Shown here: positions 23,129-62,897 of the stretch, one piece after another | Layout of the letters: every line of letters begins with the position of its first letter | Numbering within the stretch: the stretch's first letter is position 1 | DNA from: a phage | Strand: one strand, 5' to 3' | Sequence record: OZ346212.1 | Length of the DNA: 64,000 nucleotides | Position numbers and translations under genes: made by a program | Notes under the pieces: model-generated | The model's input: the letters and a program-made list of their open reading frames with translations, nothing else | What the model was told of the DNA's origin: nothing | Databases searched by the model: none

Positions 23129-23416
23129 TCATAGTGCCTCTAAGATTTCATATCCTTCAGGTCGAAATACAAGCCACTCCGTGGCTCCGTTTGGTCGATA
23201 CGCTTTATACAGAACAACCTGATCTCGGCACATGCACATGGCTACATAGTTTTCATCCACACCTGCAGCCTGCATTGCATCTTCTTCTCCGGCAACTGCT
23301 TTGCTTACAACTTCCTTGGTAGGTAGGTGTGCGATCAGCTCGTCACCATCATTAATTCCAAAATGACTGAGTTCTCCATTGGTATCTTTAATCTTAATCT
23401 TAACCAGATCTTTCAT
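23129..23416 (-). CDS. hypothetical protein, possible distant member of MKVK...EIVE family
   Basis: Ends ...EGYEILEAL; tandem with family members. Confidence 0.5.
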   Translation of the reverse strand: MKDLVKIKIKDTNGELSHFGINDGDELIAHLPTKEVVSKAVAGEEDAMQAAGVDENYVAMCMCRDQVVLYKAYRPNGATEWLVFRPEGYEILEAL

Positions 23417-23745
23417 TAGTCTTTCTCCAGGTTCAAAGGTCCTAAGATTTCATATGCCAGATTAGAAGTTACCAGAGGGTCTTCTGCATCTTTAGTATTG
23501 TACCACCCGTGAATAACCAGAGTCCCACTTTGTTTCATATCCAACTGGAACTGTTCTGCAGTTTCCTCATCCAGCTCCAAGATTTCCATAAGGTATTTGA
23601 TGTTAGGAAGGTATGCAGCTGTTACAGTTCCCTCCACCAAACCTTCGGGCCAACCTACATCCGGATGACAAGTAGGAACCAGGTTGGTCAACTTAATGGT
23701 GTACGCTTTTTCTGCACGAGCCTTCAGTAACGGGTCAATCTTCAT
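23416..23745 (-). CDS. hypothetical protein (109 aa)
   Basis: Track ORF; ATGA overlap. Confidence 0.5.
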   Translation of the reverse strand: MKIDPLLKARAEKAYTIKLTNLVPTCHPDVGWPEGLVEGTVTAAYLPNIKYLMEILELDEETAEQFQLDMKQSGTLVIHGWYNTKDAEDPLVTSNLAYEILGPLNLEKD

Positions 23746-24095
23746 TATTCGTCCTCCTCTTCGGTGCCTGCTTCCAGTAATAAGTTAAGAATATCTTCTG
23801 CACAAGGCTCATAGAACTCTTGGCCTTCATTATCGATGATTTTGTAGTCATCTCCACGAATAATCAGGGGATCACTCTCAAAATTATCGAGACCTTTAAC
23901 AACGACAACACGATCGATTGCCATCATTGTAAGAACTTTATCGACATCTTCCTCTGCTACACCATACTGCAGCAGAATGTCTTTGGTAGGAGGAACAGCA
24001 TCCACCACAACGCCGTTACCAAAACCTTCTGGAAGTTTAGCTAAAATATCTTCCGGAACCACATTCACATCAAAACCGGTAATTTCTACTTTCAT
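23745..24095 (-). CDS. small acidic protein, MKVK...EIVE paralog family
   Basis: MKVEITGFD... N-terminus, acidic C-terminus; tandem array. Confidence 0.6.
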   Translation of the reverse strand: MKVEITGFDVNVVPEDILAKLPEGFGNGVVVDAVPPTKDILLQYGVAEEDVDKVLTMMAIDRVVVVKGLDNFESDPLIIRGDDYKIIDNEGQEFYEPCAEDILNLLLEAGTEEEDE

Positions 24096-24356
24096 TTACA
24101 GCACCTCTTCGTCAACTACTTCATAAAAATGGCCTGGGATTGCAATAGCGTTCTCACCTTCACCTGCAAACACAGTTCCGTCAAGAATCAACATCATAAG
24201 AATTTCTGTAATATCCTCTTCCGGAACGTTGCCAAAACCTTTAATCAGCTCGTAGGTTGGAATATTTACATCTAAGATGTCACCATCTTTAGAACGGAAA
24301 TCAACACCGTCCTGAATCTCTGCCGTTTCAAGGTTTTTCAATTTAATCTTCATCAA
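24096..24356 (-). CDS. small acidic protein, MKVK...EIVE paralog family
   Basis: MMKIKLKNLE... and C-terminal FYEVVDEEVL. Confidence 0.6.
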   Translation of the reverse strand: MMKIKLKNLETAEIQDGVDFRSKDGDILDVNIPTYELIKGFGNVPEEDITEILMMLILDGTVFAGEGENAIAIPGHFYEVVDEEVL

Positions 24357-24432
24357 TCGGTCTCCTGTCTTGTTAAGATGAAGGTATTATTTCACACAGG
24401 GTTGGCGTTGTCAACACCTGTGTGCAAGAAAA

Positions 24433-24828
24433 TTACTGAAACAGTGCGGATAAATTACCTTCTGGTGGGAACTTATCTGCCAAAAACGGTGTTAGCACAG
24501 TAGCCTTCTGAAGATCTGGGGTCCACTCGTTGTTCAGAACATCCCAGTAGTACGCAATGTTGCTGTGTGGGTGCCGCATTACGAACTTTTTCCCTTCGTA
24601 GTCGTCTGAAACCTCTACAGAAGAAATAACAACAGAATCTTCAAGGGTTTCTTCATAGAAAGATCCCCCTTCAAATTTCCAACGAGATGCAAGAGCCCCT
24701 GCCTTGAACGCTGCAGATAACGGACTGTCGGCAAGAACATACATTTCTTGCACTCTGTCGCTGCGATCTTTGCTTCTTACGTTGTATACAGTATCTGAGC
24801 TATACTCAACACGGTATAGGCTTACCAT
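24433..24828 (-). CDS. hypothetical protein, paralog of 26640-27038
   Basis: Shared YYWxxxxxxWTP...ATxLTPF segment. Confidence 0.55.
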   Translation of the reverse strand: MVSLYRVEYSSDTVYNVRSKDRSDRVQEMYVLADSPLSAAFKAGALASRWKFEGGSFYEETLEDSVVISSVEVSDDYEGKKFVMRHPHSNIAYYWDVLNNEWTPDLQKATVLTPFLADKFPPEGNLSALFQ

Positions 24829-25160
24829 TACCGCACCTCCTCAATAACTTCCACATCTGAACCTACCACAAATGCAAAAGGACAGGTTTCATGAAAGACA
24901 TCTGGATCGCCGCCAAGCTTGCTAACAATCTCTCCACCACTAATAAACACAAGCTCACCGATATTCATCAGATTGCTGAAATAGTAACCATAATGATTAA
25001 AGAATGCAGCAGGGTCAGGTAGACTGGTAGCCTCAAGCACTACATCGGTTGAGGTTACTTTCTTATCATAACCTCTCGCCTTTTGAGATGCAAGATCTGC
25101 AGAATCCTCAGGAGACCGGAGATGCACAGGAATTGTTTCACCAATAAAGCGTACTTTCAT
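24828..25160 (-). CDS. small acidic protein, MKVK...EIVE paralog family
   Basis: Internal start MKVRFIGE...; C-terminal AFVVGSDVEVIEEVR matches family; track ORF extends to 25187. Confidence 0.55.
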   Translation of the reverse strand: MKVRFIGETIPVHLRSPEDSADLASQKARGYDKKVTSTDVVLEATSLPDPAAFFNHYGYYFSNLMNIGELVFISGGEIVSKLGGDPDVFHETCPFAFVVGSDVEVIEEVR

Positions 25161-25164
25161 ATTA

Positions 25165-25428
25165 TCACCCAACAACCATAGCTTCAAAAGGAGTCATGAA
25201 CGAATAAACGGCATCATCATCTGCTTCAGGGAATGCTCCCAAAGACTTCATATCTGAACCCTTGACAAATACAAGGTTTTGATCAAAGGCTTCTTGGGGG
25301 TCAATCCGATACATATTTCGTAGAATATCGCTTACCTCCTCATCAAGAGGTGAGTATGCTGTGCACGTTTTTCCGATCAAGCTTTGAGAATCAGGGTATC
25401 CACCTGAAGTTTTAAAATAAACAATCAT
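25165..25428 (-). CDS. small acidic protein, MKVK...EIVE-related
   Basis: VFVKGSDMKSLGA matches family core VLVKGKDLLAAGA. Confidence 0.55.
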   Translation of the reverse strand: MIVYFKTSGGYPDSQSLIGKTCTAYSPLDEEVSDILRNMYRIDPQEAFDQNLVFVKGSDMKSLGAFPEADDDAVYSFMTPFEAMVVG

Positions 25429-25519
25429 ATAGTATCACCTCTGGTAAGAGATTGGGATTCCTTTCCCACAAATAATTACAAATCTTCCTTATCGAGGAAG
25501 TATGCTAATCCAAGCAGGA

Positions 25520-25789
25520 TTATTCCTCTACAATCTCATACACATCAGGAGTTACAATCAACTCTTCTCCGTTACCCGGTGCAACAAACACCACCAAACC
25601 TTCAGGTGTGTGCTTTTTAGCCATCTCGATAACATCTTCTCGCAGAGCTGGCTCCATCAGATCAAAACCTTCACCCAGGGCATCACGAACCACCTTCATA
25701 TAGTCAACTGGTTGTGCTTCAACAATCATGCCTTCAACCAGTCCACAGTTTTTGTCTGCCAGCTCAGTTTTGAATAATTTAATTTTCAT
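25520..25789 (-). CDS. small acidic protein, MKVK...EIVE paralog family
   Basis: MKIKLFKTE... and C-terminal TPDVYEIVEE. Confidence 0.6.
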   Translation of the reverse strand: MKIKLFKTELADKNCGLVEGMIVEAQPVDYMKVVRDALGEGFDLMEPALREDVIEMAKKHTPEGLVVFVAPGNGEELIVTPDVYEIVEE

Positions 25790-25926
25790 TTAGAGGTCTC
25801 CTCAATTATTTGATATTAATAGCCGTAACCTAACACATTAACTACAACTGCGATTGCAAACATAATTTCAAAGCATGCAATCTCTACATTTGGGACTAAT
25901 TTCTTAATCACACCCATTGTAGCACC

Positions 25927-26247
25927 TCATTCTCCAAAGTCAATCTTTACTTTGCCTTTCCCCTTACCTTTCTTTCCACCGCATTTAGCCAGCTGACGTG
26001 CTGCAACATCTACCATACGGTCAGTTGCCTCGTAAGCATCACTGCCTTTAGCCTTGGCAATAACTTCTTTTCCAGAATTGTCAAAAATGAACGCCATAAC
26101 TTCCTGGTGATCATTTTCAACTTTTACACTTACACGTGCATAGTTAACAGAGGGATGTAAACGCTCCAGCTTGGACATTTTGCGGGAAATAAAAGATACC
26201 ATACCTTCTGTGATTTCTACATTGTTGCCAGTGATTTCAATTTGCAT
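25927..26247 (-). CDS. hpf: ribosome hibernation promoting factor / RaiA-family protein
   Basis: MQIEITGNNVEITEGM...KLERL...VKVE...GKEVIAKAKGSDAYEATDRMVDVAARQL aligns along its length with E. coli HPF MQLNITGNNVEITEAL... Confidence 0.8.
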   Translation of the reverse strand: MQIEITGNNVEITEGMVSFISRKMSKLERLHPSVNYARVSVKVENDHQEVMAFIFDNSGKEVIAKAKGSDAYEATDRMVDVAARQLAKCGGKKGKGKGKVKIDFGE

Positions 26248-26331
26248 AACGTGTTCCTTTTAAGGAAGAGGGAATAACTATCTCTCTTTGAAAACAATGA
26301 TACTAAATCTGAAGCGTTGTGTCAACAGTTT

Positions 26332-26622
26332 TTACAGCTTGTTGTCGATAGTTTTTAAAATATCCACAGCAAGATCTGCCATTTTTCGAACATACTCTGC
26401 AAACTCAACAGGATCCTTGATCAAAGAATTCACAGGGTCGTACCCTAGAGCGTTTAAAATGGCTGCAGCATCTACAACCTTCTCATCATTTGCGAAGATC
26501 TCTCCGTCAAACTTGTAGGTCTATTTTGAGTCAACCTTAGCAGAGCAGGGTTTGTCCATGCTTGTTACACCATCGTCTTTAAACTCTCCTGCGTTATCAA
26601 TATTTAGAATTAAATCCATCAT
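26332..26622 (-). pseudogene. small ORF interrupted by an in-frame TAG (amber) after codon 33
   Basis: GAGGTG SD then ATG ATG (26622); TAG at 26521-26523; same frame stays open for 62 further protein-like codons (TYKFDGEIFANDEKVVDAAAILNALGYDPV...) without any start codon. Confidence 0.4.
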
Positions 26623-26639
26623 GGTGACACCTCACTGTT

Positions 26640-27038
26640 TCAGTTTAGCTTTTCTTCAACAACCCCATAACTTGGGGCAGAGTCAAGAGCTTTCTGGTTT
26701 AAAAGTGGCGTAGCAGAATCTGCAAACGGTGTCCAAGTTTTTGTTCTGGAATTCCAGTAATGCTTCACTCTGGAATCTGGATGCACTATAACAAAAACTT
26801 TTTCACTTGTCAACACATTAATTTCTTCTACACCCTTGCTGATAATTTCTCCGTCATAGCCCCCAGTCTGGTATCCTTCGTACCAGGTTCTTGCATAGGC
26901 ATAGCCAGCCTGCCAGCATGCAGCCTCCTCCGAGGTGGAGACTACGTAGAAGTCTTTCTCAAATTCCGGAATACGCCCTTGCTTTACGCTCCAAGCTCCG
27001 CGAATTTTCATTGTTACTTTGAAAAGCTTGTTCTTCAT
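26640..27038 (-). CDS. hypothetical protein, paralog of 24433-24828
   Basis: Shared HYWNSRTKTWTPFADSATPLL segment. Confidence 0.55.
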   Translation of the reverse strand: MKNKLFKVTMKIRGAWSVKQGRIPEFEKDFYVVSTSEEAACWQAGYAYARTWYEGYQTGGYDGEIISKGVEEINVLTSEKVFVIVHPDSRVKHYWNSRTKTWTPFADSATPLLNQKALDSAPSYGVVEEKLN

Positions 27039-27039
27039 A

Positions 27040-27294
27040 CTACCGCTCTACAATCTCTACGTCTGTTCCTACACCGAAGGCATAGTAATGTTCTTCCCCA
27101 AAGTAATACTTGGGGACACCCGCTTTGATCAGATCTAACCCGCGAATAAATACCACACCGTGTGATACAGTGGAATGCTTCTGACGCACAGGATCGTTGT
27201 CAGGCAACCATTCAAAGTACACCGCAGGTACAACCTTTCCCTTCAGGAAGGATTGTCCCAAGTAGACGTTAGAATCAAGAATTTTAACCTTCAT
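27040..27294 (-). CDS. small protein, MKVK...EIVE paralog family
   Basis: MKVKILDSNVYLGQ...GLDLIKAG...YYAFGVGTDVEIVER. Confidence 0.65.
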   Translation of the reverse strand: MKVKILDSNVYLGQSFLKGKVVPAVYFEWLPDNDPVRQKHSTVSHGVVFIRGLDLIKAGVPKYYFGEEHYYAFGVGTDVEIVER

Positions 27295-27511
27295 TCTCGT
27301 CCTCCACTATCTCTGCATCCTCACCAAGGGCAAAGTTGTAGGTCCACTGGCTGTCAAAGCAGTCCTGAGATGCACCAGCGGCAATAAGATCTGCACCTTT
27401 TATTTTTAAAAGGTCAGGATAATCTTCGTTAGGGATAGCGGTAAACACTTTCCCCACTAAGGGCTCCTGACCAATATAGAAGCTTGAATCTAAAACTTTA
27501 ACTTTCATCAA
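27284..27511 (-). CDS. small acidic protein, MKVK...EIVE paralog family
   Basis: MMKVKVLDSSFYIGQ...GADLIAAG...FALGEDAEIVEDE; closest paralog of 27040-27294. Confidence 0.65.
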   Translation of the reverse strand: MMKVKVLDSSFYIGQEPLVGKVFTAIPNEDYPDLLKIKGADLIAAGASQDCFDSQWTYNFALGEDAEIVEDENEG

Positions 27512-27795
27512 CGGTCTCCCTCAGGCGGTTGTGGGACGTAAACACTGTTACGAATATCGTCAGCAGTGTAGTAATAAGTGGTTCCAACCCTATCTCGGGC
27601 TGCAATGTACTCTGCTATACCAACAAGTGCCATTGATTTGGTGGCGTATCTTCCCCACTCGTTAGCTCCCCAGTAGAATTTAGACCAGTAGGGAATAAGA
27701 CCGAACAAATATACCTTTTGACGAACTTCCCAGTAAGTGCCTTTTCCGACAAGTTTAAACTCTACTTCACTACTGTTAATCTTTTTCATTATCAA
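27508..27795 (-). CDS. hypothetical protein (95 aa)
   Basis: Track ORF; W/Y-rich. Confidence 0.5.
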   Translation of the reverse strand: MIMKKINSSEVEFKLVGKGTYWEVRQKVYLFGLIPYWSKFYWGANEWGRYATKSMALVGIAEYIAARDRVGTTYYYTADDIRNSVYVPQPPEGDR

Positions 27796-28088
27796 TCTCC
27801 CTCTACCGTGGTCGGATTGTCAGTAAGAAATTGAGCATTGGCTGGAGGCACGCCTGACATTTTCCACACAACCATAAGTTTATAACCAGGCACTCTATTA
27901 AGTGCAGATCGAGTAGAGTTTGTGCACGTATACTTTCGCTTTCCAAACCCGTTCTCCATCATAATCCAGTACCCAGTATCTTTGTCACCAGGTATCGGTA
28001 GACCACCTTCATCAACCCACTGAATTGACCACGGCACGATGGCTACAGCTTTATATTTAAACTTTTTAAACCACTCAAAAAGTTTCAT
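27792..28088 (-). CDS. hypothetical protein (98 aa)
   Basis: Track ORF; ATGA overlap. Confidence 0.5.
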   Translation of the reverse strand: MKLFEWFKKFKYKAVAIVPWSIQWVDEGGLPIPGDKDTGYWIMMENGFGKRKYTCTNSTRSALNRVPGYKLMVVWKMSGVPPANAQFLTDNPTTVEGD

Positions 28089-28388
28089 AATTCAGCCCCG
28101 CATAGACATAATCACTATAAATAGGCAAACAATGAATCCGAATGCCACGCCACCCATAAACGTTAATATTGATGCAATCATAGTCAATCAGCCTCGCCTG
28201 GCAACTCTTCTACCTTAACATGCCGAAAAGTGTTACCGTAATGGTTGATCCATGACATCAGCTCACTTTCTTGCTCTTCCTCTGGGATGAACTCTCGAAT
28301 ACTGACAAGTTTTAAGAAAACCTAATCACAATCTGCACCCATTCTACCAGACAGACAATAGTGCTTCATAAAAACCCTCCCGCCCGGT

Positions 28389-28583
28389 TTAGAATATTGC
28401 TTCTTCCATTGCGCCTGAGAGCAACAAAGAGGTGATCTGGCTAACATTCATCTCAGACTCTACTTCCTCCCCTTTGAAAGGTTCGCGGCAGAATAGGACT
28501 GTTTCAGGACTTTTACTTCGAACAATATAATACAAATCATTCAATGTGTTGTAGTAATAAGTGTTAAAACGTAAGTTTTTCAT
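28389..28583 (-). CDS. hypothetical protein (64 aa)
   Basis: Track ORF. Confidence 0.45.
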   Translation of the reverse strand: MKNLRFNTYYYNTLNDLYYIVRSKSPETVLFCREPFKGEEVESEMNVSQITSLLLSGAMEEAIF

Positions 28584-28867
28584 TTTCTAGTCCTCTTCTT
28601 AGATTTTTGGGGAGAAACGCTTTCTGCAATACGAGACAGACGTTCTTCTGAAGCCTTACCTACTCCAGGTTTTTTGAGTGGATTATCTTTATGACCACAA
28701 TCCAACTGGATATTGGATACCTCTCCAACTTTGTAAGTCAATTCTAGCAAAAGGTTGTCGTCCTTGTCAAATGTTTTTACGATAAATTTTTTATCGTTCT
28801 CCTGAACTTCATATCTGGTACCTGCAGTATACAGCATGGTGCCATCAGCATAGGATATCCAGATCAT
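28580..28867 (-). CDS. hypothetical protein (95 aa)
   Basis: Track ORF; basic C-terminus. Confidence 0.5.
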   Translation of the reverse strand: MIWISYADGTMLYTAGTRYEVQENDKKFIVKTFDKDDNLLLELTYKVGEVSNIQLDCGHKDNPLKKPGVGKASEERLSRIAESVSPQKSKKRTRK

Positions 28868-29211
28868 TGAGCCTCCTTTTGCTGCAACAGCATTAACTCT
28901 TTGTTAGAGATCTTTACTGCTGTTTTTATTGTTCCATCTTCACGAAACCACGACCAGAACTCTACAGTGTCACCACTATCAAGTAAAGCATGCCCATGGT
29001 AAAAATCTTTGTCCTTAGACAGTTTCTCATCTATATCTGCATCAACACATTCGTGATCCAGAGCATTTTGCCTGAACGCATCGGTTATGCCAATGCACGC
29101 CTTGCTCTCAAGACTGGTATATCCGATATCTTTTAATTCAGTTTCCCAAGTCCAGTACCCTATAAAAGCTAAAACAGCTACCCACAGTAATAACGTTTTA
29201 ATCTTTGGCAT
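28864..29211 (-). CDS. hypothetical protein with N-terminal signal/TM segment
   Basis: MPKIKTLLLWVAVLAFIGYWTW hydrophobic N-terminus. Confidence 0.5.
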   Translation of the reverse strand: MPKIKTLLLWVAVLAFIGYWTWETELKDIGYTSLESKACIGITDAFRQNALDHECVDADIDEKLSKDKDFYHGHALLDSGDTVEFWSWFREDGTIKTAVKISNKELMLLQQKEAQ

Positions 29212-29273
29212 TCTCTCTACCTCTTTCTTAGTTTATTTCACTATGGCACATCCTTTGTGCCATATCTCAACTA

Positions 29274-29744
29274 CTACTTAAATAGTAGTTCAAAATAGTG
29301 CAAAATTAACAGAAGTTGAACTACACCTAGTGCAACGGCGAGTATGTTAATCTTAGAATCGAAAAACTTCTTAACTTTTACTCTAAAAGGTTCCTTAATG
29401 TCCTTTACGATCCTATCTATAGATGACCTCATATCTCTGATTACCATCCTGAACATTAAAGACGGATGCTCCCCCATCTCCGTAACGGAATCGAAAACAT
29501 ACTCTCTTCGGTCATAAGGGCCGCCAGCTCTGCGTATTAACCTCTCCACAGAGACCTCGAACGTCACACCTGTAACGTAATCATCTATAACAAGTCGTGA
29601 CGGGTCTTTACCTTTACTATCAAGAGGTATCAAAGTTATCTTTCCAGATTTTGTTAAAATTTCCCCTTTTTCAAGCAAGGTGTACCAATGCTCTCTGCCA
29701 AGACTGTTGAGGCACGTTTTTACATATTTAACAAACATCGTCAC
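29274..29744 (-). CDS. hypothetical protein with C-terminal TM helix (156 aa)
   Basis: C-terminal ILAVALGVVQLLLILHYF. Confidence 0.5.
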   Translation of the reverse strand: MTMFVKYVKTCLNSLGREHWYTLLEKGEILTKSGKITLIPLDSKGKDPSRLVIDDYVTGVTFEVSVERLIRRAGGPYDRREYVFDSVTEMGEHPSLMFRMVIRDMRSSIDRIVKDIKEPFRVKVKKFFDSKINILAVALGVVQLLLILHYFELLFK

Positions 29745-29944
29745 CCCTCATCGCACGTCTGATATAACCACTCTATAAAATCTTGATACCATTCGCCCTC
29801 TGAGCGCTCCGTAGGCCAATAATCTTCACCCTCTCGTGCATTAAAATCTGAGTATTCAACTTTCCACTCCTTTACCAGCTCGTGGAGAAGGTTTTCAGCC
29901 TGCTCTAAAGATTTATTTTTTACCATTGCTGTCTCCTTTTTCAA
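29741..29944 (-). CDS. hypothetical protein (67 aa)
   Basis: Track ORF. Confidence 0.45.
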   Translation of the reverse strand: MKKETAMVKNKSLEQAENLLHELVKEWKVEYSDFNAREGEDYWPTERSEGEWYQDFIEWLYQTCDEG

Positions 29945-30145
29945 GATAGTTATACATCAGAACTGCACCACCTAAGATGGCTACCAGTAACAATATCCCA
30001 GATAGCATCTCAATAAACATGGCTTGAAACACTGGAAGGTCTCCCTAAATTAACGCACCATTTTAAATACATGCTCTTTTCCCATAAAGGTGCCTGGCTA
30101 AGATCTGCGTAGAACGCAATCTCTTTAAGAACAGTATAGATAGTT

Positions 30146-30373
30146 TTAGGTGCGGTCTCCATCCCTACTCTCCTTCCTGATATTCTTGTAGTAATCAACT
30201 AGGCACATTATTACGATGAAGATAACAACAGGCCAAAAAGGTGCAGCAGTGATGATGGTGATAAAATCATCAAACTTCACCCTTCGTCTGGACACGATGC
30301 ATACACCTGTCAAGAATACCGCTGTTATAACGGACATTACCAGGTAACCTATTAGCACAACATTTATACTCAT
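30146..30373 (-). CDS. small membrane protein with two TM helices and charged C-terminus (holin-like topology)
   Basis: VVLIGYLVMSVITAVFLTGVCIV and ITIITAAPFWPVVIFIVIMCLV followed by KNIRKESRDGDRT. Confidence 0.45.
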   Translation of the reverse strand: MSINVVLIGYLVMSVITAVFLTGVCIVSRRRVKFDDFITIITAAPFWPVVIFIVIMCLVDYYKNIRKESRDGDRT

Positions 30374-30403
30374 TGGTCCTCCCTTTGTAGGTTAAATTGT
30401 ATA

Positions 30404-30937
30404 CTACAAATGGTCGCTGAGGGTGTCAAGAAAATTATCCCGTTCTTTCTCAGAGTTTTCATGTGTGTAGCTGAAAAACATATCGAGAATAACCTTATTG
30501 ATATATTCCAGCTCCTCTGTGTTCAGATGCTTAGCAGGATCTACAATGACATCCCAAATATCATACAGACCGCACTCATGATACCCATAACGCCACTCAA
30601 TTGTCAAGCTGAGCGGCAAATCTTTACCTTCACAAACAACCTTCCATCTACATATGTTGGTATCTGGTCGTACCTGTGCACGGTACACCTGCACAAAATC
30701 CAATTTGAATTTGAGGTACTCGTCATACAATTTAAGCACAAAGCTCTCGATTTGTGGAGACACTTTTGCAGCAAACTGTGCGTATTCGTACTTGCACTGG
30801 ATGATCTTTCTGCGTTTTGCAGTTAAATTTTTTGCCGCCAGTTGTTCTTCAGTGTATCTCCACCTACGATCAACAAACGCAACAGGGTCTTTGTCCCCAT
30901 AGAGGTCTTCCCAGTTAATCAGAAGCATACCTGTCAC
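30404..30937 (-). CDS. hypothetical protein (177 aa)
   Basis: Track ORF. Confidence 0.55.
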   Translation of the reverse strand: MTGMLLINWEDLYGDKDPVAFVDRRWRYTEEQLAAKNLTAKRRKIIQCKYEYAQFAAKVSPQIESFVLKLYDEYLKFKLDFVQVYRAQVRPDTNICRWKVVCEGKDLPLSLTIEWRYGYHECGLYDIWDVIVDPAKHLNTEELEYINKVILDMFFSYTHENSEKERDNFLDTLSDHL

Positions 30938-31167
30938 TCCTCCACAACTTCAAGGCCTTTACCGCCTCGCTCTGGCAGATTACTTAAAGATAGGTAATAC
31001 ATATAATCAGGAGAGATCCTGCCAGACTCTGCACCTGCAGCTAGTAAATCCTTCCCTTTAACCAGGACAACATTCTCGTTTGCAGATAGCCGTTTTGCTT
31101 CCACAATTTTACCAACACAGTCAACCAAGGAAGGGTACCCTAAATCTGTAAGAAATTTAACTTTCAT
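30934..31167 (-). CDS. small protein, MKVK...EIVE paralog family
   Basis: MKVKFLTDLGYP...VKGKDLLAAGA...LEVVEE. Confidence 0.6.
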   Translation of the reverse strand: MKVKFLTDLGYPSLVDCVGKIVEAKRLSANENVVLVKGKDLLAAGAESGRISPDYMYYLSLSNLPERGGKGLEVVEE

Positions 31168-36263: not shown

Positions 36264-37532
36264 TCAGCAACCACAACTTCCGTAGTGCTTAACTCGCTCG
36301 ATAACTTCCGCTTGCTTACCTTTATTGTAAGGACGGGAGTTAGGACTGGAAAGGTATCCAGACACACGTCGAATTACACTGATCGTTCCCTCTTCATGGT
36401 TTCCACACTCTGGGCATACAAAGCCTTTAGCTGTTGCACTGAACTCACCAGAGAAACCACACTTGAGACATTTATCCACAGGTTGGTTAATACCAAAATA
36501 CATAATGTGTTTATACCCGAAGTCAACAAGAGCCTCTAAAGCATCCAGGTTGTTTTTCAGGTTAGGTGTTTCTACGTATCCGATGTTGCCACCAGAGGAT
36601 ATCATAGCAAAACCTTCTTCATACTCCCACTTATCAAAAGGAGAGCTATTGATCCATACTGGCTGATGGAAACTGTTGGTGAGATATTCATGCTCGTGCT
36701 TCAACACTTCAGGATATTCACGATCCAGACAGGTTGCAGCTTTATAGCATAGACTCTCAGAAGGGGTGCCGTACAAACTAAACGCTAGTCTACTTTTCTT
36801 CTTGTATCGCTCACAAGCATCTCTCATGTGCTGAAGTATTCCAAGAGCTAAAGCCTTGTCACCCTCTCTGCCCAAAATCTGACAGGTTTCATACACACCA
36901 ATATACCCAATACTGATGGAAGCGTACCCGTCATAGAAGAGTTTATCAATACTCTCTTCAGGATCCAGGCGAGCAAGAGCGCCTTCACACCACATGATAG
37001 GGTTCTGCCCTGCCTTAGTGCCTTTCAGACGGTTAACCCTTACAAGGTGAGCTTCATATGCCAAATCCAGATACTCGTCAAGAACGGAAAAGAAATCAAC
37101 ACCTTCCGTCTTAGCTTTTGCCGCAATCATTGGCAGGTTAAGACTAACAACACCCAAGTTGAATCTGCCGAGGTATTTCTCCTCACCTGTTTCCAAGTCA
37201 TTGTATTTGCTAAGAAAACTCCGGCAACCCATGCTCGTTACTTTACCATCTGTCGAGCCTGTCACTTTACGATTTAGTGGAACAGAAACAAAGTCAGGAT
37301 AAATCCGCTCTGCAGAGCATTCCAGAGCTAATCGTTTCAAATCATAGTTAGGATCTCCAGGGTTCATGTTGACACCCTCTTCTAGGAAGAACAACACTTT
37401 AGGGAACACAGGTGTGATACGTTCTTCACCAAGACCCATTTTGTGGACTTTCAAGTAGTTTTTGGTAATCATTCTACCAAAGACTGAGGTGTCCAGACCT
37501 AAACTTAATGTGATGAATGGAGTCTGCTGTCT
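36264..37532 (-). CDS. nrdD: anaerobic ribonucleoside-triphosphate reductase, exon 2 (glycyl-radical half)
   Basis: In-frame upstream extension RQQTPFITLSLGLDTS...; MGCRSFL active-site Cys, RRVSGYL glycyl-radical motif, C-terminal CxxC...CxxC. Confidence 0.75.
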   Translation of the reverse strand, partial: RQQTPFITLSLGLDTSVFGRMITKNYLKVHKMGLGEERITPVFPKVLFFLEEGVNMNPGDPNYDLKRLALECSAERIYPDFVSVPLNRKVTGSTDGKVTSMGCRSFLSKYNDLETGEEKYLGRFNLGVVSLNLPMIAAKAKTEGVDFFSVLDEYLDLAYEAHLVRVNRLKGTKAGQNPIMWCEGALARLDPEESIDKLFYDGYASISIGYIGVYETCQILGREGDKALALGILQHMRDACERYKKKSRLAFSLYGTPSESLCYKAATCLDREYPEVLKHEHEYLTNSFHQPVWINSSPFDKWEYEEGFAMISSGGNIGYVETPNLKNNLDALEALVDFGYKHIMYFGINQPVDKCLKCGFSGEFSATAKGFVCPECGNHEEGTISVIRRVSGYLSSPNSRPYNKGKQAEVIERVKHYGSCGC

Positions 37533-38332
37533 CCTCCCTGTGTTTCCACAGGGCCAGACTATCTCTTACTCTACTTCAATAAGATAATAACCCTTTATTG
37601 TGAGATGCTTACCTTCGGCATTTCCTTCGATAGCCCTATGAACGTTACCTACGTTCAAATTTAAGGCTTTTGCACAGGCATAGAGTGAAGGATATTCACC
37701 CACCAAGGTTTTACCTTTGTATGCCTGCACTTTCCTATAGCACTTACCTGGACAAAGTCCTGTTCGGAAAGCATGTCTCTTATTATCTTCCGGCAAAACC
37801 CACTCTAGGTTAGACGGATGATCATTCAATGTATTGCCATCTTTATGATTCACTTCCCAGTTTTCAGGGTCTTCTGGGACATCCGGCAAACAATACAAGG
37901 CAACAATCCTTGAGGTTTGGATTCGAATCTTTTTACCTTTGTGGTTGAAAGAGTACATATAACGGCGTTTAACATGCTTGTTACCTTTTCCATAACCTCC
38001 CCACAATATTGGGTGTAGCATTCCACGTTTTCCGTATACGTTTCCAACCTCATCAATCACATAGTTTGATTCTTCACCATTAAGAATGATCTTTTTCATA
38101 GAGCCTCTCCATTTCGAAGTTAGTATTTCAACTAACCCCTACACTACTTGGTTCAGAAATGTTTGTCAAGCATTTCTGCCTTTCGTTAGTCGTTACAACC
38201 GTTCCAACTCCTGTAAGAACTAGTCACGGGATTGGCATAGCTTTCGCCTTAGCGTTCCCCGTTAGCCGGATTTACCGACCCCTCTTATGAGGTTAGGAGA
38301 GTTTTACAACGGCCAGTTTGTTAACCGTTGAC
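37533..38332 (-). mobile_element. putative group I intron (T4-like core) in nrdD, HNH ORF in 3' region (boundaries approximate)
   Basis: 5' portion contains CUAACGGGGAAC...CAAUCCCGUG, matching the T4 td intron core AAACGGGGAAC...CAAUCCCGUG; exon 1 ends in U, insert ends in G; splice restores INTLTS|RQQTPF. Confidence 0.6.
37566..38099 (-). CDS. HNH homing endonuclease (intron-encoded)
   Basis: WEVNHKDGNTLNDHPSNLEW HNH signature; lies between the two nrdD halves. Confidence 0.8.
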   Translation of the reverse strand: MKKIILNGEESNYVIDEVGNVYGKRGMLHPILWGGYGKGNKHVKRRYMYSFNHKGKKIRIQTSRIVALYCLPDVPEDPENWEVNHKDGNTLNDHPSNLEWVLPEDNKRHAFRTGLCPGKCYRKVQAYKGKTLVGEYPSLYACAKALNLNVGNVHRAIEGNAEGKHLTIKGYYLIEVE

Positions 38333-39184
38333 AGAAGTTAACGTGTTGATTTGATAGAGCAAAGTCTGCATGCTGTCAAATACGTCTTTATCTGTCATTT
38401 GCATTGCAACAGTTTCAGCATCCGGCAACCAATGTTCCTGGCAAAATTTAAGGTTCTTCTCATAGGTTGCTTCAGCATACTGTGCCAGATAATGATCAAT
38501 ATGGCTCATAGTCTGACCACCATATTGAGCACTAGCTACCGCACTAGAGATTTGGCTAAGGATTGTTGTTGCAACCCCTATTGACTTCGGCTTACTGACA
38601 TGGGCGTTACCAATGTTGAATCCGTTTTCCAACATATCTGGATAATTTACCAAACAACAGTTTGTTAACGGACTGATCAAGTAGTCAAGATCATGCACAT
38701 GGATGAATCCTTTATTGTGCTCTTCGGAGACACGGTCTGGCAGGATCTGTGTTGATGCAAGGTGTTTGCTAAGAATACCTGCAAGCAGGTCGCGATGAGT
38801 GTGTACATGATTAGTAGGCTTATTTGCGTTTTCTTTTGTAAATTCATCACAAGTTCGATCCAAGAAGCCACTAATATCTGCAAGCAGTTTTCCACCTGCC
38901 TCTCTGTTATTATCTCTTGTCTGTCTATACTGGATGTATTCTCTGGCTGCACATTTTAAACCCATATCCATAAGAGCATCTTCAACAAGGATATGGATAT
39001 TTTTTACAGAGATCGTGCACTGGTCGGTTGGTAGATTGTTAGCAACAACTTCATTAACCGCGCAGGCGATCCGGTAAGCTTCTTCTTCAGTATGTCCAGA
39101 CTCAAGTAAGGCGGACTCTGCCGCCTTGATCACCTTAATTCCGTTATAGAACTCTTCTCTACCGTCCCGTTTTACAACTTTCAC
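38333..39184 (-). CDS. nrdD: anaerobic ribonucleoside-triphosphate reductase, exon 1 (ATP-cone and N-terminal half)
   Basis: MKVVKRDGREEFYNGIKV ATP-cone start; ends ...LYQINTLTS just before the intron. Confidence 0.75.
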
Positions 39185-62084: not shown

Positions 62085-62159
62085 GCCCTGTTAGCTTAGT
62101 GGATAAAGCAGCGGCCTTCTAAGCCGTTGACACTGGTTCGAGTCCAGTACGGGGTGCCA
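62085..62159 (+). tRNA. tRNA-Arg (anticodon UCU)
   Basis: Hand-folded cloverleaf: acceptor GCCCTGT/ACGGGGT, anticodon loop CTTCTAA, T-loop TTCGAGT, encoded CCA. Confidence 0.8.
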
Positions 62160-62163
62160 AATT

Positions 62164-62250
62164 GGGGAGTTATCCCGTAGAGGTAGCGGTGTAGACTGTA
62201 AATCTATTGTCATTGCGACTCGGGTGGTTCGACTCCACCACTCCCCACCA
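62164..62250 (+). tRNA. tRNA-Tyr (anticodon GUA), long variable arm
   Basis: Acceptor GGGGAGT/ACTCCCC, anticodon loop CTGTAAA, T-loop TTCGACT, CCA; overall like E. coli tRNA-Tyr. Confidence 0.8.
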
Positions 62251-62364
62251 AATTTATATTTTTAGATGCATAAATAATACAGATAATGGCATTGATATTT
62301 ATCGTCGTTTATACTAGTCACTAACTGCTCGAAAATCAGTGTCATTATCAGTATTATTTATAAA

Positions 62365-62455
62365 GGAGGGTAGGGAGCAATGGTGCTCAATCGGTCTTGA
62401 AAACCGTCCCGTTGAGGATGACTCGATGATGGTTCGATTCCATTACTCTCCGCCA
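62365..62455 (+). tRNA. tRNA-Ser (anticodon UGA), long variable arm
   Basis: Acceptor GGAGGGT/ACTCTCC, anticodon loop CTTGAAA, 20-nt variable arm, T-loop TTCGATT, CCA. Confidence 0.75.
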
Positions 62456-62553
62456 CATTGTTGACCTTGTAATTAAGCGAAAGTCGGAAGCAGAACCGGA
62501 TTATCAAATGTTACAGTCGTCATCGCCGACTAGCAACATGGTCAACATACTGA

Positions 62554-62650
62554 GCTAGGTAAGCCCTTTGGCAAGGGCGAGGATTTTTAATCCTGAAAAT
62601 AGACGAGGTAGTCGTTGAATACATAGGTGGTTCGATTCCATCACCTAGCA
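62554..62650 (+). tRNA. atypical 97-nt tRNA-like gene (possibly Lys-UUU with about 29-nt variable region) or pseudo-tRNA
   Basis: Perfect acceptor GCTAGGT/ACCTAGC, D-arm GCCC...GGGC, hairpin with loop TTTTTAA, extra hairpin ACGA-ggtag-TCGT, T-arm GGTGG-TTCGATT-CCATC; no encoded CCA. Confidence 0.35.
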
Positions 62651-62657
62651 CCTTTTT

Positions 62658-62733
62658 GCTGATGTAGCACAATCGGTAGTGCAATTGATTTGTAATCAAT
62701 AGGTTGTAGGTTCAAGTCCTGCCATCAGCACCA
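62658..62733 (+). tRNA. tRNA-Thr (anticodon UGU)
   Basis: Acceptor GCTGATG/CATCAGC, anticodon stem ATTGA/TCAAT with loop TTTGTAA, T-loop TTCAAGT, CCA. Confidence 0.85.
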
Positions 62734-62734
62734 A

Positions 62735-62809
62735 GGCCCTGTAGCTGGAAGGTTCAAGCAAGCGACTCATAATCGCCAGACGGTGGTTCAATTCCACCCA
62801 GGGCCACCA
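62735..62809 (+). tRNA. tRNA-Met or Ile2 (anticodon CAU), elongator type
   Basis: Acceptor GGCCCTG/CAGGGCC fully paired (not initiator-like), anticodon loop CTCATAA, T-loop TTCAATT, CCA. Confidence 0.75.
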
Positions 62810-62820
62810 AATAGTAAATA

Positions 62821-62897
62821 CTCCGCGTAGCTCAGCTTGGTAGAGCGCCTGATTTGGGATCAGGAGGTCGAGTGTTCGAATCACTCCGTGGAGACCA
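62821..62897 (+). tRNA. tRNA-Pro (anticodon UGG)
   Basis: Acceptor CTCCGCG/CGTGGAG, D-arm GCTC...GAGC, anticodon stem CCTGA/TCAGG with loop TTTGGGA, T-loop TTCGAAT, CCA. Confidence 0.85.

Follow-up and report, generated by a model that had tools for sequence, protein, structure and literature searches.

The HPF/RaiA-family gene of rV5-like coliphages: family, context and possible roles in ribosome hibernation

Do phages manipulate ribosome hibernation? The question is raised by a small gene, hpf, carried on a 64,000-nucleotide stretch of phage DNA (sequence record OZ346212.1; hereafter, the window), and it bears on the infection of slow-growing or stationary bacteria by virulent phages such as the Vequintaviruses, which collections for phage therapy and biocontrol include. 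The region studied shares 99.4% identity with Escherichia phage nomo (Vequintavirus murica) and 96-99% with about 120 records of rV5-like phages; the window belongs to a virulent Vequintavirus (rV5-like) coliphage.

The existence of the gene is not news: a paper of 2019 in Nature Communications (PMC6375957) drew attention to it. The gene has been annotated since 2006, and it was published in 2019 and in later coliphage surveys. Since rV5 ORF144 has been annotated from record DQ832317 onwards and is discussed in PMC6375957 and PMC6969025, the finding itself must be regarded as already known. In the former, Mizuno et al. (2019) listed rV5 ABI79209 among the virus-encoded ribosomal proteins; in the latter, Mathieu et al. 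(2020) mentioned that their rV5 isolates carry hpf, 'as already described'. Existing labels for the gene, which is annotated in about 119 phage records, include 'sigma 54 modulation factor' (rV5 DQ832317, ORF144), 'ribosome hibernation factor', 'promoting factor' and 'RaiA'. The additions of the present analysis are the selection acting on the gene, its own conserved promoter, a syntenic ortholog, the lack of a phage RMF, the partial retention of ribosome contacts and a clade-specific tail.

The product of rV5 ORF144 (gp144, ABI79209) corresponds to the same gene as the window hpf: it is 97% identical, occupies the same slot and lies behind the same promoter, P144. The window allele and those of nomo, naswa and slur16 encode a protein of 106 aa that, like E. 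coli HPF, has NN at positions 8-9, whereas the rV5-type allele encodes 105 aa and has a single N.

Family membership and predicted fold

According to the ORF list and the sequence, hpf is a 106-aa open reading frame on the minus strand, which runs from the ATG at 26247 to the stop codon at 25927-25929; the strand had not been given in the sequence-only reading of this DNA, whose quoted protein sequence the translation matches exactly. The gene, its parts and the elements around it are the following (evidence in brackets):

25927..26247, minus strand: hpf coding sequence, 106 aa plus stop, ortholog of rV5 ORF144 / ABI79209 (ORF list, PF02482, TIGR00741, rV5 record)
25978..26247, minus strand: predicted HPF/RaiA core domain, residues 1-90 (AlphaFold2 model, Foldseek)
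25930..25977, minus strand: Lys/Gly-rich C-terminal tail GKKGKGKGKVKIDFGE, residues 91-106, predicted to be disordered (pLDDT <50)
26297..26325, minus strand: sigma70-type promoter, TTGACA-17 nt-TATCAT, 11/12 matches (promoter scan and rV5 annotation)
26255..26259, minus strand: Shine-Dalgarno sequence AAGGA, 7 nt before the hpf ATG (read off the sequence)
25816..25917, minus strand: 33-aa hydrophobic ORF (rV5 ORF145), phrog_15151 (annotated in rV5, nomo and others)
25520..25789, minus strand: 89-aa acidic protein, member of paralog family C (rV5 ORF146) (alignment to family C paralogs)
25484..25500, minus strand: terminator-like hairpin and T-rich stretch, 3' of the 89-aa ORF (consensus scan only)

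That reading had recognised an HPF/RaiA homolog in a virulent phage, and profile searches, among them the PF02482 search proposed with it, bear it out far beyond chance. The window protein scored 56.7 bits against PF02482 (Ribosomal_S30AE; gathering cutoff 23.7 bits, E = 4.2e-15), with a match that spans profile positions 1-83 of 88, and 56.8 bits against the HPF/YfiA family model TIGR00741 (yfiA; cutoff 40.9). Among more specific models, the HPF equivalog NF007780 (NCBIfam) scored best, with 65.2 bits, which is below its cutoff of 125, and the RaiA equivalog NF007654 (NCBIfam) gave 22.8 bits, below its cutoff of 158. Judged by these profiles, the protein is a bona fide member of the HPF/RaiA family that is nearer to HPF than to RaiA and an equivalog of neither.

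When all PDB chain sequences were searched with phmmer, E. coli HPF came first (2rql, 4v8h and 6h4n; E = 4e-15 to 2e-14). Residues 1-90 of the window protein align to residues 1-89 of E. coli HPF with one gap; the identity is 39/88 (44%), while identity to E. coli RaiA is 25%. The earlier claim that the protein aligns with E. coli HPF along its whole length is consequently valid for residues 1-90, which include both of the stretches quoted in its support, but not for the last 16 residues, GKKGKGKGKVKIDFGE, for which E. coli HPF offers no counterpart.

The AlphaFold2 model, built from a 70-sequence alignment, has a core pLDDT of about 90 and a predicted beta-alpha-beta-beta-beta-alpha topology (beta1 2-8, alpha1 14-30, beta2 34-44, beta3 47-56, beta4 61-68, alpha2 71-89), and residues 91-106 are disordered in it (pLDDT <50). 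In a Foldseek search of the PDB, the best 35 matches were all HPF, RaiA or pY, and the best of them was HPF in the E. coli 100S ribosome (6h4n_x; TM 0.88, rmsd 1.1 A over 89 columns). In common with E. coli HPF (YhbH; 2rql, 4v8h, 6h4n) are the short single-domain form, the 44% identity over 88 residues and a predicted fold within 1.1 A rmsd. Long HPFs, of the Gram-positive type, end in a dimerisation domain of some 60-100 aa, which a linker sets off from the rest. Such a domain is absent from the phage protein, which has only 106 aa and in which a second Pfam domain was not found. It is a short-form member of the HPF/RaiA family, with a single domain and a Lys/Gly tail predicted to be disordered. 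Shared with E. coli RaiA (YfiA, protein Y; 1n3g, 4v8i) are the family, the fold and a C-terminal extension past alpha2; by contrast, the RaiA tail ends acidic and the phage tail is Lys/Gly-rich, their sequences being unrelated.

Expression signals and the surrounding paralog array

The sigma70-type promoter lies about 50 nt 5' of the hpf ATG and coincides with the feature 'Sigma70-type promoter; P144' of rV5 DQ832317. Additionally, its -35 context, AACTGTTGACA, is kept 5' of hpf in the divergent L004 lineage (see below). The consensus scans for promoters and terminators gave site numbers no higher than in shuffled sequence and, for this reason, the terminator-like hairpin at 25484..25500 is weak evidence of an end to the transcript. 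The 33-aa ORF, whose PHROG family (phrog_15151) is of unknown function, starts 10 nt past the hpf stop codon and is probably co-transcribed with hpf, and the 89-aa ORF is probably the last gene of the transcript. The probable hpf transcript would contain, in this order, hpf, the 33-aa ORF and the 89-aa ORF, followed by the weak terminator-like hairpin. A regulatory RNA that sequesters the Shine-Dalgarno sequence was considered for the hpf leader and ruled out (MFE -7 kcal/mol, z = 0.38); an Rfam search over the whole window returned tRNAs and no other RNA family.

Regarding the time of expression, Kropinski et al. (2013, PMC3606486) assigned gene 144 of rV5 to transcription unit 82-163, which also holds genes for nucleotide metabolism and replication and is separate from the late genes 27-66. 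A search of the literature for transcriptomes or the timing of expression in Vequintaviruses yielded nothing.

The array of paralogs around hpf is real and contains three families, listed here together with the distant tRNAs:

27040-27294, 27284-27511, 30934-31167, 25165-25428 and the C-terminus of 24828-25187: family A (phrog_5009-like)
24433-24828 and 26640-27038: family B (phrog_7379)
23129-23416, 23416-23745, 23745-24095, 24096-24356 and 25520-25789: family C
62085-62897, opposite strand: tRNAs, the only other translation-related features in the window

This mapping confirms that hpf sits inside the array, as the sequence-only reading had proposed, but HPF itself is not one of its members: it has no blastp match among the array paralogs and falls outside families A, B and C. 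The suggestion that the neighbourhood could be a translation-control module, by contrast, finds no backing. None of the ten neighbouring genes tested has a Pfam domain, and the PHROG families of these ten are all of unknown function. Array proteins compared with the HPF family by hhalign reached probabilities of 0.5-7.7% (positive control, 99.8%), and the tRNA cluster is 36 kb from hpf.

Several array genes begin with MK[IV][EK][IL], which resembles the beta1 strand of HPF. The possibility that the array consists of degenerate HPF domains was considered and rejected, given the lack of blastp matches, the hhalign probabilities and the different fold predicted for the 89-aa neighbour. For the latter, the AlphaFold2 model (pLDDT 85) shows a small beta-barrel into which a helical element is inserted, and not an HPF fold; it had no significant match in the PDB (best E = 0.5, with a faint SH3/KOW-like resemblance), and the hhalign probability of the protein against the HPF family was 1.2%. 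The label 'sigma 54 modulation factor' that this gene carries in nomo, naswa and others is, judged by the prediction, an annotation error, because the model is not HPF-like and lacks a significant PDB match.

Distribution and age of the gene

With tblastn (E <= 1e-3), the window-type protein was found at 93-100% identity in 118 rV5-like records, and in no phage group other than Vequintavirus. The ORF is intact in all of the 119 Vequintavirus records found. An exhaustive phmmer search of 1.84 billion representatives returned one protein alone below E = 1e-10 (P0004), the next match having 44% identity. P0004 is a 103-aa ortholog, 64% identical, encoded on contigs of 125-137 kb of a divergent lineage, for which megablast matches to known Vequintaviruses cover just 10-13% of a 12-kb region. 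This lineage is colinear with the window gene for gene, with orthologs of 28-84% amino-acid identity and hpf in the same slot, and dS between the two phage lineages is saturated.

The hpf gene is under strong purifying selection: among 11 alleles compared with that of the window, dN/dS was 0.03-0.13, with dS up to 0.78. These alleles were taken from GenBank phage records; the viral-contig scan gave only two loci. It could be argued that hpf came from a host and now decays in the phage as a passenger with no function, as it diverges from cellular HPFs and its rV5 product was not found on ribosomes (PMC6375957). The selection analysis effectively refutes this explanation, which is also opposed by the intact ORF in about 119 records and in the 64%-identical lineage, by the conserved promoter of the gene and by its phage-like GC content (41.1%, against 42.7 +/- 2.2% in its neighbours); we give it hardly any credence.

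The base composition, which matches that of the phage, also indicates that hpf is an old, maintained resident. The transfer from the host in recent times that PMC6375957 suggests is unsupported, as identity to the best cellular representatives is no more than about 44%, the GC content is phage-like and dS is saturated. Consequently, the acquisition appears, on these comparisons, to be old and not recent.

That phages may carry an HPF gene is a theme already documented, since PF02482 proteins are known from phages in the HPF of Cronobacter phage GAP32 and in phrog_8990 ('sigma 54 modulation protein / ribosomal protein S30EA'). These are, however, a separate lineage: the window protein falls in phrog_12469 (E = 1e-69) and matches phrog_8990 merely at 1e-7, and GAP32 HPF is placed elsewhere in the tree of Mizuno et al. 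(PMC6375957). Regarding RMF, with which gammaproteobacterial short HPFs convert 90S into 100S dimers, no homolog was found in 50,697 phage records (tblastn, E <= 0.01), so any 100S-forming activity of the phage protein would depend on the RMF of the host.

Contact surface, ribosome association and possible role

Contact residues were taken from the HPF/RaiA-ribosome contact list in bioRxiv 10.1101/2025.10.07.680626 and located in an alignment with 141 cellular representatives. The phage protein keeps 18 of the 24 family-consensus columns. The residues kept include K23, K26, R84 (Ec R83), Q85, K88 (K87) and K92 (K91), all of them among the conserved ribosome contacts in that list, where Ec R83 contacts m4C1402. 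In both phage lineages, on the other hand, there are replacements at K80 (to V/T), K89 (G/S), R/K17 (V), T53 (F/R), H55 (F) and E51 (M/S), the window protein having V, G, V, F, F and M at these six positions; position 17 is basic in 83% of the family and V in phage HPF. Compared directly, E. coli HPF and the phage protein have Ec R83, K87, K91, K23, K26, Q84 and E60 in common, but the latter lacks K80, K89, R17, T53 and H55 and has a one-residue insertion after beta3, the extra lysines K60, K65 and K67 and the 16-aa Lys/Gly tail. The extra lysines and the tail raise its pI, which is 9.0 against 6.5 in E. coli HPF (9.0-9.4 in phage HPF). Additionally, seven residues common to both phage lineages (V17, S40, H47, E49, F55, A71 and T75) occur in less than 5% of the 141 cellular representatives, and they are mostly located on beta3 and alpha2, the elements that face the rRNA. 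The retained set of contacts could suffice for rRNA binding, but it equally fits a weakened binding.

Because the gene is under purifying selection, has its own promoter and a conserved position and encodes a partly remodelled contact surface, we consider that it is useful to the phage and probably not a plain copy of the host HPF activity.

The association of rV5 HPF with ribosomes has been addressed by Mizuno et al. (PMC6375957), who expressed the protein in E. coli NM522 from pBAD24. Mass spectrometry of the crude extract showed its presence, whereas the fractions with 70S and 100S lacked it (PMC6375957). The peptides reported for it there, GSDAYEATDR, VENDHQEVMAFIFDNSGK and VKIDFGE, are all present in the window protein. 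Its expression had no discernible effect on 100S and the sedimentation profiles were control-like, although few 100S were present at the growth stage sampled (PMC6375957). In this protocol, cells were harvested at OD600 = 1 and ribosomes were pelleted for 20 h through 0.5 M NH4Cl (PMC6375957). The authors did not regard the negative result as decisive, and they offered three possible reasons for the missing protein: the growth phase, a true loss of binding and dissociation during the salt wash (PMC6375957). A lack of ribosome association, which the sequence-only reading had named as evidence against itself, has in part been reported here, in a form that does not decide the matter. We agree that the conditions used (0.5 M NH4Cl, cells late in exponential growth and a host that supplies HPF, RaiA and RMF of its own) could have removed rV5 HPF. 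Functional studies of phage HPFs later than 2019 were not found in the literature.

Given these results, the reading that we tentatively favour, with a confidence somewhat short of calling it probable, is that phage HPF binds the canonical HPF/RaiA site in a weak, salt-labile manner, leading to inactive 70S and, with it, to the parking and protection of idle ribosomes. In outline, the host RNA polymerase would transcribe hpf within the non-structural (early/middle) unit, and the product would bind the A/P-site channel, between the head and the body of 30S, on vacant host ribosomes. This weak and salt-labile binding would be anchored by R83 (to m4C1402), K87, K91, K23 and K26, in E. coli numbering, and by the basic tail. 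Most likely, ribosomes would be parked as inactive 70S, without 100S dimers, because the phages lack RMF and dimerisation of ribosomes is beyond a short HPF on its own; in this, the phage protein would resemble RaiA. The likely benefit would be that vacant ribosomes, during infection or in slow-growing hosts, are stabilised and protected for the later burst of phage protein synthesis. The protective part of this role is what we infer; protection against RNase R by HPF-family proteins is documented in S. aureus (PMC8406268). A 70S outcome is supported by the lack of a phage RMF, the lack of a dimerisation domain and the unchanged 100S on expression (PMC6375957), while the absence from 70S and 100S fractions (PMC6375957) and the replaced contact positions count against canonical binding.

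It is possible, if doubtful, that the HPF of Vequintaviruses is a remodelled fold, whose beta3/alpha2 surface is phage-specific and conserved and which bears the Lys/Gly tail, and that it does what cellular HPFs do not, be it hibernation antagonism or the recognition of a non-ribosomal target. A neofunctionalised protein, in which the fold was kept but stable ribosome binding was lost and which would act on other RNA, on a host protein or on a component of a defence system, is in our opinion rather unlikely. It would explain why rV5 HPF was expressed yet absent from purified 70S and 100S (PMC6375957), and it is consistent with the concentration of the seven phage-signature residues on beta3 and alpha2, with the loss of K80, K89 and R17, with the shift in pI from 6.5 to 9.0-9.4 and with the isolation of the clade, whose next-best representative has 44% identity; strong purifying selection, moreover, implies that the remodelled sequence is itself constrained. 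However, the single essential Arg (Ec R83), K87, K91, K23, K26 and Q84 are all kept, along with 18/24 consensus columns, and the neighbouring genes point to no alternative partner. The negative test, for its part, used a 20-h 0.5 M NH4Cl cushion, late-exponential cells and a host with HPF, RaiA and RMF, and, according to its authors, dissociation in the salt wash could account for it (PMC6375957). Mizuno et al. (PMC6375957) also proposed an anti-hibernation competitor, which would occupy the HPF/RaiA site, or whose tail would clash with RMF, so that host 100S would be prevented or dissolved and the ribosomes of starved hosts freed for phage mRNAs. The 16-aa basic tail, which reaches past alpha2, would suit such a role, as would the lack of a phage RMF; the weakened contacts would suit an easily displaced placeholder. 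The tail of E. coli RaiA is reported (Polikanov et al. 2012) to overlap the RMF site and to block 100S formation. By contrast, the phage tail has no sequence similarity to that of RaiA, whose equivalog model gives just 22.8 bits, and basic tails of about 18 aa are usual in short members, which argues against a specific anti-RMF device. Additionally, a protein in the A/P site would still block translation, and the level of 100S did not respond to expression, though these dimers were scarce at the stage sampled (PMC6375957). We regard a competitor as unlikely.

The sequence-only reading had gone further and suggested a translation-silencing factor through which the phage remodels ribosome availability, a function that would be conjectural for phage HPF. 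Its explicit form, an active host-shutoff factor that silences translation by driving ribosomes into 100S or inactive 70S, we consider very unlikely. It is true that 100S formation is promoted by E. coli HPF, the nearest relative to have been characterised, and that a likely early expression from a sigma70 promoter fits a takeover function. However, short HPFs need RMF, which is encoded by no phage among 50,697 records, and binding in the tRNA/mRNA channel cannot distinguish host from phage messages. Moreover, HPF-family proteins bind vacant rather than translating ribosomes, a preference that also speaks against shutoff. Finally, neither a discernible effect on 100S nor a departure from control-like sedimentation was observed on expression (PMC6375957). 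Selective silencing of host translation would be a less likely benefit than the parking of idle ribosomes described above.

If the protein were a hibernation antagonist, or had a non-ribosomal target, it would be the first viral protein characterised as a modulator of ribosome hibernation in bacteria; if it antagonised the RMF, HPF or RaiA of the host, the phage could exploit the ribosomes of starved gut E. coli. Among virus-encoded proteins, bS21 and bL12 are similar to phage HPF in being captured genes of the translation apparatus under purifying selection, but they were incorporated into E. coli ribosomes and rV5 HPF was not (Mizuno et al. 2019, PMC6375957).

As for the tail, the idea that its Lys/Gly composition makes it a unique device has to be toned down: short members of the family normally end in some 18 aa of basic character, and what is specific to the clade is the (GK)n repeat alone, which is unique among 144 family sequences. 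Alleles differ by indels of GK units, and the tail is otherwise conserved within the genus.

Small genes around hpf

Two small genes that flank hpf, the gene for the HPF/RaiA-family protein, carry premature amber codons in the window:

26522, minus strand: W34* in the homolog of nomo_105 (gene 26332-26622), a single G->A change turning TGG (Trp) into TAG (amber)
28323, minus strand: W16* in the homolog of nomo_111 (gene 28184-28369), a single G->A change turning TGG (Trp) into TAG (amber)

Apart from its amber change, each gene is identical in nucleotide sequence to its counterpart in phage nomo, a close relative. Among the window, nomo, naswa, ECO111 5-P and rV5_ev146, only the window has the two changes. 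In a comparison of 62 genes spanning 29.6 kb, stop-gains were observed in two genes only, these being W34* and W16*, and the substitution spectrum as a whole was unbiased. The pair could be the product of sequencing errors, could represent amber mutations of laboratory origin, or could derive from the natural loss of dispensable accessory genes.

The small acidic paralogs in the region that surrounds hpf (23129-31167, minus strand) number approximately 12 genes and fall into at least three families. In families A and C, the strand MK[IV]K[ILV] recurs at the N-terminus and the motif [YA]E[IV]VE[ED] at the C-terminus; because of these shared elements, the two may constitute a single superfamily. 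AF2 models one paralog, the product of 25520-25789, as a small beta-barrel with a helical insert, and no significant match to this model was found in the PDB.

Length variation is also observed in hpf itself. Codons 8-9 (26221-26226) encode Asn-Asn, like E. coli HPF, in the type of allele found in the window and nomo, giving a protein of 106 aa, and the rV5-type allele has one Asn at these positions, giving 105 aa. In phage YN3 and at L003, an hpf-bearing locus outside the window, the GK repeat in the tail (25945-25965) also differs by one unit.

Annotation errors in public records

Annotation errors have spread in GenBank among the genes of the hpf region. For instance, the records of nomo, naswa, nom and other phages give the name “sigma 54 modulation factor” to the 89-aa gene located downstream of hpf (25520-25789, minus strand), whose product has no match to PF02482, the HPF/RaiA family, and has a predicted fold different from that of HPF. 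In the records of phages bov and SA_NWU, hpf itself is named “ATP-dependent protease La type I”. The host labels of 18 “Campylobacter phage” records also look doubtful: their stated host is C. jejuni, and across the hpf region they are 94-97% identical to rV5-like coliphages.

hpf relatives outside the window

Four hpf-bearing loci (L004-L007) belong to a divergent Vequintavirus-like lineage with the same gene order as the window and a protein identity to it of just 28-84%; an example is contig AATLQU010000010.1 of GCA_012894635.1 (136,793 bp). Against 50,697 phage records, megablast detects only 10-13% of a 12-kb region of this lineage, whose sources are metagenome and Logan assemblies, with one contig lying within an E. 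coli assembly. It seems to represent a species or genus not yet described, in which hpf has likewise been retained. In the representative library, phage HPF matches eight separate stretches of P0007, a protein of 1160 aa, which suggests that it is built of tandem HPF-like domains.

An atypical tRNA-like gene and an apparently divided NrdD

Further features of the window are:

62554-62652, plus strand: tRNA-like gene, atypically long (97-99 nt), inside a cluster of seven tRNAs
36264-39184, minus strand: anaerobic ribonucleotide reductase (class III, NrdD), apparently in two ORFs
37566-38099: HNH homing-endonuclease gene between the two apparent NrdD ORFs

ARAGORN gives the tRNA-like gene a four-base anticodon (“atcc”) and no amino-acid assignment, and its Rfam tRNA score is just 35.5 bits; it could be a degenerate or an intron-containing tRNA. 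From the annotation of nomo genes 132-134, on which both other entries are based, NrdD appears to be divided into two ORFs by the HNH gene.
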